Source: a virus
Taxonomy: Duplodnaviria > Heunggongvirae > Uroviricota > Caudoviricetes
Virus record (IMG/VR): IMGVR_UViG_2529292834_000009
Location: 1-8,375 of that record
Strand: one strand, 5' to 3'
Length of the DNA: 8,375 bases
Part shown: positions 2,711 through 7,877 of the stretch, piece by piece
Layout: the number at the start of each line of letters is the position of its first letter
How positions within the stretch are numbered: the first letter of the stretch is position 1
Program-made: the position numbers and the translations under genes
Notes under the pieces: generated by a model
The model's input: the letters and a program-made list of their open reading frames with translations, nothing else
The model's database searches: none
Told to the model about the DNA's origin: nothing

Positions 2711-3207
2711 TGCCTCCATCATTACGAAAAGCCGTTGCTGCTGCTATTGGTGGCGGAGCAATTGCTATAGCATCAGTGTTAATCACTGGCCCAAGTGGTA
2801 ACGATGGTCTGGAAGGTGTCAGCTACATACCATACAAAGATATCGTTGGCGTATGGACTGTATGTCACGGGCATACAGGAAAAGACATCATTCCCGGTAA
2901 AACGTATACCGAAGCAGAATGCAAAGCCCTCCTGAATAAAGACCTTGCCACGGTAGCCAGACAAATTAACCCGTACATCAAAGTCGATATACCGGAAACA
3001 ACGCGCGGCGCTCTTTACTCGTTCGTTTACAACGTGGGCGCTGGCAATTTCAGAACATCGACGCTTCTTCGCAAAATAAACCAGGGCGATATCAGAGGCG
3101 CATGTGATCAGCTACGTCGCTGGGCATACGCTGGCGGTAAGCAATGGAAAGGTCTCATGACTCGTCGTGAGATTGAGCGTGAAATCTGTTTGTGGGGTCA
3201 GCAATGA
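2710..3207 (+). CDS. rrrD: SAR (signal-anchor-release) endolysin, T4-lysozyme-like muramidase (phage 21 R type)
   Basis: 165 aa; N-terminal Gly/Ala-rich weakly hydrophobic SAR segment ([20 protein letters not shown]) followed by E(35)...D(44)...T motif typical of T4-lysozyme-family catalytic residues; translationally coupled to holin (TAATG) and to Rz (ATGA at 3204..3207). Confidence 0.9.
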
Positions 3208-3665
3208 ACAGAGTAACCGCGATTATCTCCGCTCTGGTTATCTGCATCATCGTCTGCCTGTCATGGGCTGTTAATCATTACCGTGATAACGCCATTACCT
3301 ACAAAGCCCAGCGCGACAAAAATGCCAGAGAACTGAAGCTGGCGAACGCGGCAATTACTGACATGCAGATGCGTCAGCGTGATGTTGCTGCGCTCGATGC
3401 AAAATACACGAAGGAGTTAGCTGATGCGAAAGCTGAAAATGATGCTCTGCGTGATGATGTTGCCGCTGGTCGTCGTCGGTTGCACATCAAAGCAGTCTGT
3501 CAGTCAGTGCGTGAAGCCACCACCGCCTCCGGCGTGGATAATGCAGCCTCCCCCCGACTGGCAGACACCGCTGAACGGGATTATTTCACCCTCAGAGAGA
3601 GGCTGATCACTATGCAAAAACAACTGGAAGGAACCCAGAAGTATATTAATGAGCAGTGCAGATAG
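3204..3665 (+). CDS. rzpD: Rz i-spanin (inner-membrane spanin subunit), lambda type
   Basis: 153 codons from [23 protein letters not shown]...; single N-terminal TM helix then charged coiled-coil-like periplasmic domain; ATG 3204 overlaps the endolysin stop; matches my recollection of lambda Rz. Confidence 0.85.
3424..3606 (+). CDS. rzoD: Rz1 o-spanin (outer-membrane lipoprotein) embedded in the +1 frame of Rz
   Basis: 60 aa [24 protein letters not shown]...; lipobox LVVVGC; Pro-rich (PPPPP, PPP); entirely nested in Rz in a different frame, the classic Rz/Rz1 arrangement. Confidence 0.8.
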
Positions 3666-4349: not shown

Positions 4350-4544
4350 TTATTCATCATCACTCTGGATTGATGTATATGCTCTCTTTTCTGACGTTAG
4401 TCTCCGACGGCAGGCTTCAATGACCCAGGCTGAGAAATTCCCAGACCCTTTTTGCTCAAGAGCGATGTTAATTTGTTCAATCATTTGGTTAGGAAAGCGG
4501 ATGTTGCGGGTTGTTGTTCTGCGGGTTCTGTTCTTCGTTGACAT
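4350..4544 (-). CDS. Small basic protein with ribbon-helix-helix-like core (possibly YlcI/DUF3950-like); function unknown
   Basis: 64-aa ORF MSTKNRTRRTTTRNIRFPNQMIEQINIALEQKGSGNFSAWVIEACRRRL...; basic N-terminus followed by a beta-strand/helix pattern (IRFP..., ...GSGNFSAWVIEA) reminiscent of RHH DNA-binding proteins; a 64-aa gene occupies this position in DLP12 by recollection. Family assignment is inference. Confidence 0.5.
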   Translation of the reverse strand: MSTKNRTRRTTTRNIRFPNQMIEQINIALEQKGSGNFSAWVIEACRRRLTSEKRAYTSIQSDDE

Positions 4545-4699
4545 GAGGTTGCCCCGTATTCAGTGTCGCTGATTTGTATTGTCTGAAGTTGTTTTTACGT
4601 TAAGTTGATGCAGATCAATTAATACGATACCTGCGTCATAATTGATTATTTGACGTGGTTTGATGGCGTAGATGCACGTTGTGACATGTAGATGATAAT

Positions 4700-4932
4700 T
4701 ATTATCATTTTGCGGGTCCTTTCCGGCGATCCGACAGGTTACGGGGCGGCGACCTCGCGGGTTTTCGCTATTTATGAAAATTTTCCGGTTTAAGGCATTT
4801 CCGTTCTTCTTCGTCGTAACTTAATGTTTTTATTTAAAATACCCCCTGAAAAGAAAGGAAACGACAGGTGCTGAAAACGAGCTTTTGGGCCTCTGTCGTT
4901 TCCTTTCTCTGTTTTTGGCCGTGGAATGAACA
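4700..4932 (+). other. Lambda-type cos site: cosQ region, cosN (12-nt cohesive end GGGCGGCGACCT at 4744..4755) and cosB (R3 about 4792..4807; R2 4853..4867 and R1 4893..4907 as an inverted pair)
   Basis: ...CCGACAGGTTACG|GGGCGGCGACCTCGCGGGTTTTCGCTATTTATGAAAATTTTCCGG... matches my recollection of the lambda right end joined to the lambda left end; R1 and R2 are exact reverse complements (GAAAGGAAACGACAG / CTGTCGTTTCCTTTC); lies immediately upstream of Nu1. Confidence 0.8.
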
Positions 4933-5478
4933 ATGGAAGTCAACAAAAAGCAGCTGGCTGACATTTTCGGTGCGAGTATCCGTACCATTCAGAACTGGCA
5001 GGAACAGGGAATGCCCGTTCTGCGAGGCGGTGGCAAGGGTAATGAGGTGCTTTATGACTCTGCCGCCGTTATAAGATGGTATGCCGAAAGGGATGCTGAA
5101 ATTGAGAACGAAAAGCTGCGCCGGGAAGTTGAAGAACTGCGGCAGGCCAGCGAGACAGATCTCCAGCCAGGGACTATTGAGTACGAACGCCATCGACTTA
5201 CGCGTGCGCAGGCCGACGCACAGGAGCTGAAAAATGCCAGAGACTCCGCTGAAGTGGTGGAAACCGCATTCTGTACTTTCGTGCTGTCGCGGATCGCAGG
5301 TGAAATTGCCAGTATTCTCGACGGGATCCCCCTGTCGGTGCAGCGGCGTTTTCCGGAACTGGAAAACCGACATGTTGATTTCCTGAAACGGGATATCATC
5401 AAAGCCATGAACAAAGCAGCCGCGCTGGATGAACTGATACCGGGGTTGCTGAGTGAATATATCGAACAGTCAGGTTAA
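4933..5478 (+). CDS. nohD: Terminase small subunit Nu1 (lambda gpNu1), full length
   Basis: 181 aa MEVNKKQLADIFGASIRTIQNWQEQGMPVLRGGGKGNEVLYDSAAV...; near-identical to my recollection of lambda Nu1 (a few substitutions); N-terminal winged-HTH region; 3' end overlaps the start of gene A as in lambda. Confidence 0.9.
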   Translation: MEVNKKQLADIFGASIRTIQNWQEQGMPVLRGGGKGNEVLYDSAAVIRWYAERDAEIENEKLRREVEELRQASETDLQPGTIEYERHRLTRAQADAQELKNARDSAEVVETAFCTFVLSRIAGEIASILDGIPLSVQRRFPELENRHVDFLKRDIIKAMNKAAALDELIPGLLSEYIEQSG

Positions 5479-5668
5479 CAGGCTGCGGCATTTTGTCCGC
5501 GCCGGGCTTCGCTCACTGTTCAGGCCGGAGCCACAGACCGCCGTTGAATGGGCGGATGCTAATTACTATCTCCCGAAAGAATCCGCATACCAGGAAGGGC
5601 GCTGGGAAACACTGCCCTTTCAGCGGGCCATCATGAATGCGATGGGCAGCGACTATAACTGTTATTAA
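5453..5668 (+). pseudogene. Terminase large subunit (lambda gpA) N-terminal fragment; homology ends after about codon 68, then 3 foreign codons and a stop
   Basis: MNISNSQVNRLRHFVRAGLRSLFRPEPQTAVEWADANYYLPKESAYQEGRWETLPFQRAIMNAMGSDY matches the lambda gpA N-terminus by recollection; the full protein is about 640 aa, so roughly 570 codons are missing; breakpoint about 5655..5658. Confidence 0.85.
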
Positions 5669-6581
5669 TGAAAATCCGACAGCACAAGGATATCAGGCAA
5701 TTGCTGTAAACACGAATGATGCTTACACCTGCCCGGCAGGTTCTTATACGACGATATCGTGTCTGACGAAAAGTGATAATTCCCGGTGTCGTGCAAGGTT
5801 CGGAAAAATGTCTGATAATGGTGCGTTTGTTTTTCATTCAGATGCAGTTCTGGATCCTGTTACGGGAAATGTTGTTCATGGAAATAATGTGACGGTGACG
5901 GCAGAAAGAGTCGGTGAATGGTGGTTGTTTACCGCCACTCTTTTTGCAGATGCGGAAATGATAATCAGCTCAAGATTTGAAATCCTGGCGATGCCTGGAA
6001 TCAGTATTATCCCCAATGGCTCTACGTTAGATATTGCGATGCCTCAGGCGGAGATTGGGTCGTACAGGACGTCATTTATCATTACTGAAGGGGCTCCTGG
6101 CACTCGCTCCAGCGACATGGTGACAATACCTGTAAGAAACAATATTCACCGATTACCATTCAGTGCTCTTGTTGAAGTTAATAAAAACTGGGATATCCCT
6201 CCCAGCAAATCACCATTAATCTTTAATGTTAAAGATTATCAGGAAAATGGTCTGTTCACGCATGGATTCCGTGGTAATAATTTCTCTGATGCCGGTTCTC
6301 CTTTTATTTCTATGGGAGGGTGTAATAAATATGTGGCAACAACCCAGAGGAAAATCATTTCAGGCTTCCGTTGTGGCGCTGATGGAGATGTTCAGGCCGT
6401 ATGTAATGGTGAATTATCTGTTGCGGCAAAAACAACATGGACTTCAATTGTTCCACGGGCAGTATTGCGAATTGGAGGGCAGGGCACTAATGGGGAGTAT
6501 CATCTTTTTGGTCATATCCGTAATCTGCGTATCTGGCATAAAGAATTAACTGATGCGCAAATGGGGGAGAGTATTAAATGA
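5637..6581 (+). CDS. C-terminal fragment of a fibre/adhesin-like protein with a predicted concanavalin/LamG-like beta-sandwich C-terminal domain; 5' end lost at the deletion junction (possibly expressed from internal ATG 5808, or a pseudogene)
   Basis: 314-aa ORF whose first about 7 codons overlap the gpA remnant in another frame; beta-rich N/T/G/S/V composition; C-terminus ...VLRIGGQGTNGEYHLFGHIRNLRIWHKELTDAQM resembles the terminal strand motif of LamG-type jelly-roll domains; stop overlaps the next ATG (ATGA at 6578..6581). Domain call is from motif recognition only. Confidence 0.5.
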   Translation: MRWAATITVINENPTAQGYQAIAVNTNDAYTCPAGSYTTISCLTKSDNSRCRARFGKMSDNGAFVFHSDAVLDPVTGNVVHGNNVTVTAERVGEWWLFTATLFADAEMIISSRFEILAMPGISIIPNGSTLDIAMPQAEIGSYRTSFIITEGAPGTRSSDMVTIPVRNNIHRLPFSALVEVNKNWDIPPSKSPLIFNVKDYQENGLFTHGFRGNNFSDAGSPFISMGGCNKYVATTQRKIISGFRCGADGDVQAVCNGELSVAAKTTWTSIVPRAVLRIGGQGTNGEYHLFGHIRNLRIWHKELTDAQMGESIK

Positions 6582-6859
6582 AAGATTTAACACTCAAATT
6601 TGCAGACAGGGCCGACTTTTCGGCCTTTATGGAGAGTATTGGCTATTATGATGACGAGTCGATGCAGGATGATATTCTTATTGACGTGATAGGTAACGTG
6701 TACAAAGAAACCGGAGAACTGACTGAAGATGGCGAACCGGTATGTGTTAAGGAAGACGGATATTTTGTAAACGTGCGCATCATTAATGATGTAAAAAAAT
6801 CGTCAATATTCGATAAATACGCGGTTGTTGTTGAGCATCAACTTCGTGGCTGGATGTGA
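6578..6859 (+). CDS. Small acidic hypothetical protein (93 aa), translationally coupled to the upstream ORF
   Basis: ORF MKDLTLKFADRADFSAFMESIGYYDDESMQDDILIDVIGN...; Asp/Glu-rich; purine-rich GGGGGAGAG upstream; start overlaps the upstream stop. No recognisable family. Confidence 0.55.
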   Translation: MKDLTLKFADRADFSAFMESIGYYDDESMQDDILIDVIGNVYKETGELTEDGEPVCVKEDGYFVNVRIINDVKKSSIFDKYAVVVEHQLRGWM

Positions 6860-6868
6860 GGGAGACAA

Positions 6869-7573
6869 ATGGCTACATCGACAGTAATTCCAGGAGATAT
6901 CACCACGCTAAAGGGAGATGTCAGTAAAACTAAGGAAGATATTTCCTCAATTAACGGAAAAGTATCAACGCTTCAGACTGATATGACCAGTGCAAAGCAG
7001 GATATCAGCACCAGATACACAAAAACTGAAGTTGATAATAAGCTGAAAAACAAACTGGAAGTGAACGATCTGGAAAGCGGTCGTTATGGTGGAGATTTTT
7101 ACCCGTTGACTGGCCGTGAAGCGTTTTATATGTGGGGATTGGGCACGACTACAGCGGCGGCAAACCTTTATCTTAATCCTGACCCTGCAATTTCGTCTGT
7201 ACTGCGGTCAACATCGTCTATTCGCTATAAACATTCAGTAGAGACGATAGATTCAGAGCACGCCGATCTCATTTTCAGGATGCGCCCTGTGTGGTACAGG
7301 TCGCAATACGAAAATGACAGGCGTGACTGGGGATTCTACGGATTGATTGCCGAGGAAGTAGGAGAAATTGCCCCTCAGTTTGTACACTGGCGACCAGCTA
7401 ACGAAGATGATGCTCCTGAAGCTATTTCCAGCAATGGCCTTGTTGCCGAAGGTGTAATGTACGAACGTCTGGTTGTTCCACTGATTCACCATATCCAGAA
7501 GCTGACTGAAAGAGTTGATGAACTTGAGTCAGAATTAAAGTTGTTATCCGTTTCCCGAAGCGATATCGGATAA
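6869..7573 (+). CDS. Short tail-fibre-like protein: N-terminal degenerate repeat segment plus C-terminal domain resembling the self-cleaving intramolecular chaperone (peptidase S74 type) of phage fibres/tailspikes
   Basis: 234 aa; N-terminal about 14-residue degenerate repeats (LKGDVSKTKEDISS / INGKVSTLQTDMTS / AKQDISTRYTKTEV); C-terminal SSIRYKHSVETIDSEHADLIFRMRPVWYRSQYENDRRDWGFYGLIAEEVGEIAPQFV...GLVAEGVMYERLVVPLIHHIQKLTERVDELESELKLL resembles the S-D-x-R-x-K ... GhIAqEv ... coiled C-terminus pattern of S74 chaperone domains; GAGGGAGA SD upstream. Confidence 0.65.
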   Translation: MATSTVIPGDITTLKGDVSKTKEDISSINGKVSTLQTDMTSAKQDISTRYTKTEVDNKLKNKLEVNDLESGRYGGDFYPLTGREAFYMWGLGTTTAAANLYLNPDPAISSVLRSTSSIRYKHSVETIDSEHADLIFRMRPVWYRSQYENDRRDWGFYGLIAEEVGEIAPQFVHWRPANEDDAPEAISSNGLVAEGVMYERLVVPLIHHIQKLTERVDELESELKLLSVSRSDIG

Positions 7574-7583
7574 AGGAGGAGTA

Positions 7584-7877
7584 ATGGATATAACACCTTT
7601 CCTTCATGCGCTTTGTGCTGTGGCTGCGCAGCTACTGATTGGTCTTTTTACCGGGAACTGGGCTTACGGGGCGATAGCCGGTTGTACGTTCTTCATTGCG
7701 CGTGAACACACCCAGGCAGAATATCGCTGGATCGAAATGTTCGGGCATGGCAAGCGAATGAATATGCCGTGGTGGGGCGGTTTTGATACACGTGCATGGG
7801 ATGTGGCAAGCCTGATGGATTTTGCTGTGCCGGTGGTGGCGTGTCTGCTGGTCTGGCTGTTGGTTAATCGTGGGTGA
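7584..7877 (+). CDS. Small predicted inner-membrane protein (97 aa, two hydrophobic helices), unknown function
   Basis: MDITPFLHALCAVAAQLLIGLFTGNWAYGAIAGCTFFIA...VASLMDFAVPVVACLLVWLLVNRG; strong SD AAGGAGG 7 nt upstream of ATG; Trp/Arg-rich central loop. Confidence 0.5.
   Translation: MDITPFLHALCAVAAQLLIGLFTGNWAYGAIAGCTFFIAREHTQAEYRWIEMFGHGKRMNMPWWGGFDTRAWDVASLMDFAVPVVACLLVWLLVNRG

Follow-up and report, generated by a model that had tools for sequence, protein, structure and literature searches.

Within the window (the whole stretch of 8,375 nucleotides that was analysed), a fragment of terminase gene A abuts the distal part of a phage fibre gene in one chimeric open reading frame (ORF), and the region is very probably the deletion remnant of a lambdoid Stf-type fibre gene in the prophage DLP12. 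The chimeric ORF itself is most likely a non-functional young pseudogene, an ordinary product of prophage erosion and not a new system. As we propose it, the ancestral gene would have encoded a 781-aa fibre in four parts, namely an N-terminal virion-attachment domain, an Ala-rich shaft, an RcGTA-like beta-sandwich (domain 1) and a terminal LamG/ConA-like jelly roll (domain 2). A single illegitimate deletion with one shared base would have removed terminase A codon 68 through fibre codon 473, sparing the distal 308 residues, i.e., domain 1 minus ~75 core residues together with the complete LamG-like domain, and the ORF would have stayed open owing to the recency of the event and to a chance out-of-frame ATG in the terminase fragment. 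The features, in window coordinates, are as follows:

4933-5478, + strand: nohD, terminase small subunit (Nu1), intact (Pfam Phage_Nu1, E=2.4e-101, positions 1-164/164; annotated as nohD in an identical locus).
5453-5655, + strand: N-terminal fragment of terminase large subunit A, ~68 codons with a GTG start (phrog terminase large subunit families, E=2e-40).
5637-6581, + strand: chimeric ORF of 314 aa, six residues (MRWAAT) followed by fibre codons 474-781 (ORF map; comparison with REL606 WP_000290529.1; RefSeq WP_023486745.1).
5655-5657, no strand: deletion junction from A-derived to fibre-derived DNA with one base shared, the A at 5655 (window set side by side with REL606).
5655-6113, + strand: what remains of domain 1, a truncated beta-sandwich with homology to the RcGTA head-spike fibre (NF048003 profile; PDB 6tb9).
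6108-6578, + strand: complete C-terminal LamG/concanavalin-A-like jelly-roll domain (residues ~158-314 of the ORF); its border with domain 1 is placed only roughly, and the two ranges share a few bases.
6578-6859, + strand: 93-aa partner gene (phrog_1361), whose ATG overlaps the fibre stop (ATGA).
6869-7573, + strand: 234-aa short fibre protein with a C-terminal Peptidase_S74 intramolecular chaperone (Pfam Peptidase_S74, E=3.7e-6, above cutoff).
7584-7877, + strand: 97-aa gene (phrog_1443) that moves with the module, following the 234-aa gene in REL606, E. coli C and AST205.

The ORF map and a 100%-identical annotated locus (L001) in E. coli 99-3165 place the window in the late region of DLP12, a defective lambdoid prophage. 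Its genes run in the order quuD, an ompC/nmpC-type porin, the lysis genes essD-rrrD-rzpD, iss/bor, ylcI and nohD, after which come the 68-codon terminase A stub, the fibre remnant and three small genes related to tails; beyond these, the annotated locus continues with a tfa fragment and then appY. Across the whole window there were zero Rfam matches to RNA families. The porin gene (nmpC/ompC-type, 360 aa; 824-1906, - strand) is intact here and is annotated as a split pseudogene in K-12 MG1655. Relative to REL606 and AST205, the rrrD/rzpD segment at 2844-3423 (580 bp) carries 16 substitutions, as against two SNPs and one poly-G indel in the other ~4.7 kb compared, and judging from this clustering it looks like a recombination tract and not point-mutation drift.

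The junction is sharply defined. As far as 5655 the terminase fragment is 100% identical to intact A genes in lambdoid phages; from this base on, identity is to the REL606 fibre gene and extends to the window end with 1 mismatch in 2,721 nt, which locates the junction to a single shared base at which terminase A codon 68 is joined to fibre codon 474. These two limits of identity show that the junction placed in the preliminary description is real and that its true position is at most 2 bases away. It lies at the start of an 11-bp palindrome, ATAACTGTTAT (5655-5665), and the junction-spanning tryptic peptide of the chimeric ORF is WAATITVINENPTAQGYQAIAVNTNDAYTCPAGSYTTISCLTK. The left arm, the terminase A fragment, is labelled an incomplete pseudogene in RefSeq. 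The same deletion would also remove head and tail genes, some 20 kb of them on the lambda map, a figure that supposes a DLP12 ancestor of lambda's size and is an estimate only. E. coli C was considered as a complete ancestral prophage and was ruled out, having the same Nu1-J deletion as REL606; because it yielded no complete ancestor, the deletion size remains an estimate.

The intact allele of the fibre gene, carried by E. coli C and by E. coli B REL606, encodes a 781-aa protein named 'prophage tail fiber N-terminal domain-containing protein' (WP_000290529.1). The REL606 protein opens with Pfam PF08400 'Prophage tail fibre N-terminal' at residues 1-131 (E=5.8e-67) and continues into a long Ala/Ser/Thr-rich shaft, and in both strains a J remnant lies directly upstream, an order that indicates a lambda-type side tail fibre arrangement. 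The intact allele sits after J and before the accessory genes, as is typical of Stf; the deletion has taken the upstream genes from the window. PF08400 is absent from the window ORF, which is therefore a fragment and not a functional Stf member. All post-junction residues (308/308) are identical to the REL606 allele from residue 474 onward, and the match of the ORF to phrog_1419 'tail protein' (E=1e-81) covers only profile positions 474-793/793; the similarity to the fibre family, as read from these alignments, is far beyond chance. The preliminary description had taken the C-terminal region for an orphaned receptor- or carbohydrate-binding module from the tip of a fibre or adhesin. REL606 identifies what is missing from its N-terminus as the PF08400 attachment domain, the Ala-rich shaft and ~75 residues of domain 1, and the full-length gene is a side tail fibre; this, together with glycan binding by relatives, supports the fibre-tip interpretation.

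Where the preliminary description saw a single LamG domain, the LamG domain stands, and a second beta-domain, RcGTA-like and truncated, lies before it. NCBIfam NF048003 GTA_spike_fiber aligns ORF residues 8-158 with profile positions 43-181/182 (E=3.8e-11) at 43.8 bits, above the curated cutoff of 36 bits, so that the window copy spans only positions 43-181 of a domain that is complete at 1-182. A profile of the fibre family matched PDB 6tb9, Rcc01080, with E=1.3e-16; this solved relative came from the family profile, single-sequence phmmer against PDB chains giving noise (E 0.1-0.4). The C-terminal motif of domain 1, PQxExG..SSFIIT..TRxSD, is retained in the window. The motifs FKRASxATY, EPRFE and GLLIEGQxTN, nearly invariant across the fibre family and included in the Rcc01080 alignment, are missing from the window and present in REL606 and in the database variant P0002 (on contigs of 1.4-1.7 kb, gene context being drawn from complete genomes). 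Their location upstream of the junction indicates that the deletion cut through domain 1 and removed ~75 N-terminal residues.

The chimeric frame starts at ATG 5637 and runs uninterrupted to its stop codon, a TGA at 6579-6581, and its C-terminus reads ...LRIGGQGTNGEYHLFGHIRNLRIWHKELTDAQMGESIK, with the LRIGGQ...GHIRNLRIWHKELTDAQM ending reported in the preliminary description agreeing with the translation. That description had noted only internal Met codons past the junction, the first at 5808; this Met is indeed residue 58, and what had been missed is the in-frame ATG at 5637, which opens the ORF 18 nt upstream of the junction within terminase-derived DNA read in another frame, MRWAAT being A-derived DNA translated out of frame. 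RefSeq annotates a complete CDS from ATG 5637 (WP_023486745.1) under the name 'phage head spike fiber domain-containing protein'. A weak Pfam match to Herpes_BTRF1 (E=0.009, 1/28 members) was set aside as a chance match. Within the fibre CDS, at 5912-5939 (+ strand), there are overlapping hairpins that resemble intrinsic terminators, with a T-run after them, and terminator-like sites number 7 in 4500-7000 against 2.3 +/- 1.5 expected; the sites are also in the intact allele, and the excess is probably due to chance or codon-driven.

Of 5,426 complete genomes of E. coli searched with an 80-bp probe spanning the junction, 31 matched it in full, ETEC (O6:H16 and related collections) making up most of them. 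Across 1,081 bp surrounding the remnant, a single carrier deviates (99.9% identity) and the other 30 show 100% identity, so the junction is one recent event in one lineage, and the carriers are too near-identical to offer divergence from which selection could be read. Other DLP12 prophages have decayed differently. In REL606 and E. coli C, Nu1 runs into a J remnant and the fibre gene is complete; K-12 retains nohD and an A stub longer than that of the window (aaaD, 309 bp), along with tfaD, ybcY and tfaX; in AST205 nohD too is gone, and a 4-bp overlap, GATA, links the ylcI-nohD intergenic region (window ~4629) directly with what is left of the fibre. An 8-bp microhomology, GATAACTG, suggested by BLAST for the AST205 junction was rejected, since it is absent from the window and the true overlap is the 4-bp GATA. 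The window and REL606 each retain DNA that is missing from the other (A DNA in the window, J and fibre DNA in REL606), so the two arose by independent deletions from a fuller ancestor. DLP12 has decayed by at least 3 or 4 separate deletion paths (K-12, B/C, ETEC, AST205), which constitute a natural series for the study of prophage erosion; a literature search on DLP12 and REL606 returned nothing specific.

When the AST205 (L007 3495-3515), window and REL606 (L004 6922-6935) sequences are aligned, the right endpoints of the AST205 and window deletions fall within 3 bp of each other in the palindrome ATAACTGTTAT, while the left endpoints are ~1 kb apart. The shared right endpoint could mean that AST205 underwent a second, nested deletion starting from an ancestor of the window type, or else that the site is a hotspot for breakpoints, and the flanking SNPs, at which AST205 is REL606-like at 4536 and 7308, are compatible with both. 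If the two deletions were independent, a hotspot would mark off an exchangeable receptor-binding cassette. We regard as unlikely the broader alternative that codon 473/474 is a recurrent breakpoint at a conserved/variable boundary of the fibre, or that the LamG-tipped ORF is expressed as a free lectin affecting phage adsorption.

The 93-aa gene downstream of the remnant was found by tblastn in 179 phage records, as compared with 205 for the fibre, with the same taxon spread, and the order of the fibre followed by a ~92-aa gene is kept in phage phA11. It gave zero Pfam or NCBIfam matches, and its product is a candidate fibre chaperone or adaptor. Among the phage-collection matches, 8 records assigned by their labels to Campylobacter phage and 2-3 very short ones (1.6-1.8 kb) assigned to Listeria phage carry a coliphage-type fibre and the 93-aa partner, and these may be mislabelled or contaminating sequence. 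The 234-aa protein aligns with positions 1147-1384/1385 of phrog_3299 (E=6e-139). Its Peptidase_S74 domain lies at residues 116-172, and the mature part would comprise ~115 residues. Its length is the same in REL606, E. coli C and the unrelated prophage of WB61, and this conservation of the short form indicates that there has been no DLP12-specific truncation of the gene. In WB61 (L008 2643-5738), a module of the fibre, 93-aa, 234-aa and ~100-aa genes, 99.6-99.7% identical, lies in a different prophage adjoining dusA, with a slightly longer gene (309 nt) in the place of the 97-aa gene. The WB61 fibre is cut at ~codon 188 and abuts a frameshifted J, which constitutes another independent truncation.

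It is conceivable, if distinctly improbable, that the remnant persists with the 93-aa, 234-aa and 97-aa genes as a cassette reservoir from which superinfecting lambdoid phages recombine in the tip and so shift their host range. Lambda has been shown experimentally to recombine with DLP12 (R-Rz-cos-nu1-A) and with the stf-tfa remnants of Rac and Qin to give viable hybrids (PMC3945230), the fibre module recurs at 99.6-100% identity next to dusA in WB61, and its more distant versions across unrelated phage families indicate that it is mobile. Yet such recombination follows from homologous DNA and does not amount to a selected function of the remnant, and the intact allele of other strains would be a better donor. 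By analogy, the remnant could serve as passive donor DNA, but as a by-product.

The classification of the remnant as a pseudogene rests on its lack of an attachment domain, a shaft, a virion and notable translation signals, and on a crippled domain 1. The database variants include one with a frameshift (P0004) and one with substitutions (P0001), which fit neutral decay. Against this classification stand the intact RefSeq CDS, the late-operon orientation downstream of nohD and the overlap of the stop with the start of the next gene, and there may be read-through transcription and some translation; likewise, the LamG domain models well alone, and the product could, according to the models, partly fold. 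A stronger form of this objection holds that translation of the chimeric ORF, starting at ATG 5637 or at Met58 (5808), yields a stand-alone LamG-type lectin co-opted by the host that, for example, binds the cell's own surface glycan and blocks phages using the same receptor, and we consider it very improbable. In its favour, the 314-aa ORF is intact and annotated as a CDS in the orientation of the DLP12 late genes, the C-terminal domain folds confidently alone in silico and a weak AAGG lies 11-14 nt before ATG 5808. But inspection of the sequence found no Shine-Dalgarno before ATG 5637, a promoter scan found no promoter above chance near the ORF, neither a signal peptide nor an export route was found in its sequence, and domain 1 lacks its conserved core strands. 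The identity of 30 of the 31 carriers over 1,081 bp points to youth and not selection as the source of intactness, the frameshifted P0004 exists, and the sister lineages have kept and lost different parts, as neutral decay predicts. With the pseudogene reading preferred, the result matters little beyond annotation, where the 'intact' RefSeq CDS would be better labelled a 5'-truncated side-tail-fibre pseudogene.

The claim in the preliminary description that the last ~150 residues have a LamG/jelly-roll fold was borne out, at ~155 residues, by the structural model, by BFVD neighbours and by PF13385 matches in homologues. An AlphaFold model of the whole ORF (28-sequence alignment) has a pLDDT of 76 and is all-beta, with two domains and a low-confidence linker at 148-157, and domain 2 modelled alone reaches a pLDDT of 80.8 and a pTM of 0.77. 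The model is a curved two-sheet beta-sandwich superposable on LG/LNS/pentraxin domains, i.e., a jelly roll, and its BFVD structural neighbours are coliphage tail fibres and then many phage proteins labelled ConA-like or LamG-like. Pfam PF13385 Laminin_G_3 aligns residues 252-308 of the window ORF with profile positions 93-149/151 (E=0.0085) at 16.7 bits, below the gathering score of 27.6 bits; within the family, 23 of 28 sequences reach E<=0.01, the best of them 3.2e-6, and several database homologues have a precomputed PF13385 match. Neither a Ca2+ nor a sugar site was identified in domain 2, and the structure paper on DT57C LtfA/LtfB makes no mention of the domain of the LamG-tipped fibre. 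Least probable of all is that this domain is a ConA-like glycoside hydrolase or lyase (GH16-like or alginate-lyase-like) acting as a depolymerase tip and not as a binding module.

Phage relatives annotated as side or lateral tail fibres, from T5-like, T1-like, Dhillonvirus, rV5-like and lambdoid phages, share 27-44% identity over 88-98% of the ORF (phrog_1419/phrog_5939). Such fibres mediate O-antigen-specific primary adsorption in T5-like phages, and the same has been proposed for T1-like phages (PMC8594841). By analogy, the intact distal pair of domains most likely forms the receptor-recognition tip of a trimeric lateral fibre, binding surface polysaccharide (O-antigen, LPS core or capsule), and its role in the intact phage would most likely be reversible primary adsorption. 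The RcGTA head spike fibre binds capsular polysaccharide (PMC10218006), which supports a glycan-binding role for the relatives of domain 1. For defining a receptor of the fibre family experimentally, the intact REL606 allele would be a tractable model.

Among known systems the closest is the fibre of REL606 and E. coli C, whose residues 474-781 are 100% identical to the 308 of the window and which precedes the same set of genes (93 aa, 234 aa, 97 aa, tfa fragment, appY); the window differs in lacking residues 1-473, and the upstream deletion of REL606, with Nu1 fused to a J remnant, is a different one. Domain 1 is homologous to RcGTA Rcc01080 (PDB 6tb9), with the motifs RASxATY, PRF/Y, LL(I/L)E and QxExG..SS.I.T..TRxxD in common, but Rcc01080 is a monomeric, capsid-attached fibre of an alphaproteobacterial gene transfer agent and not a tail fibre, and the window copy is without the first ~42 profile positions. 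Domain 2 resembles LamG/LNS, pentraxin and CBM40 modules (Pfam clan Concanavalin; PF13385) at a sequence identity of just 7-17%.

Lambda Stf has a Gly/His-rich tip that requires the Tfa chaperone. It shares with the intact allele the PF08400 N-terminus, the Ala/Ser/Thr-rich shaft and the position after J, whereas the distal half is unrelated, the present fibre ending in head-spike-fibre-like and LamG domains and being followed by the 93-aa gene where lambda has a full tfa. The module as a whole (head-spike-like domain, LamG tip, ~93-aa partner and short S74-chaperone fibre) is common to lambdoid, T1-like, T5-like, Dhillonvirus and rV5-like phages. The T5-like (Salmonella phage phA11 Stf, 518 aa), T1-like, Dhillonvirus and rV5-like fibres have both distal domains, a ~92-aa gene next and a second fibre gene; unlike the remnant in the window, they are complete genes in functional virions, and they carry other N-terminal attachment regions.
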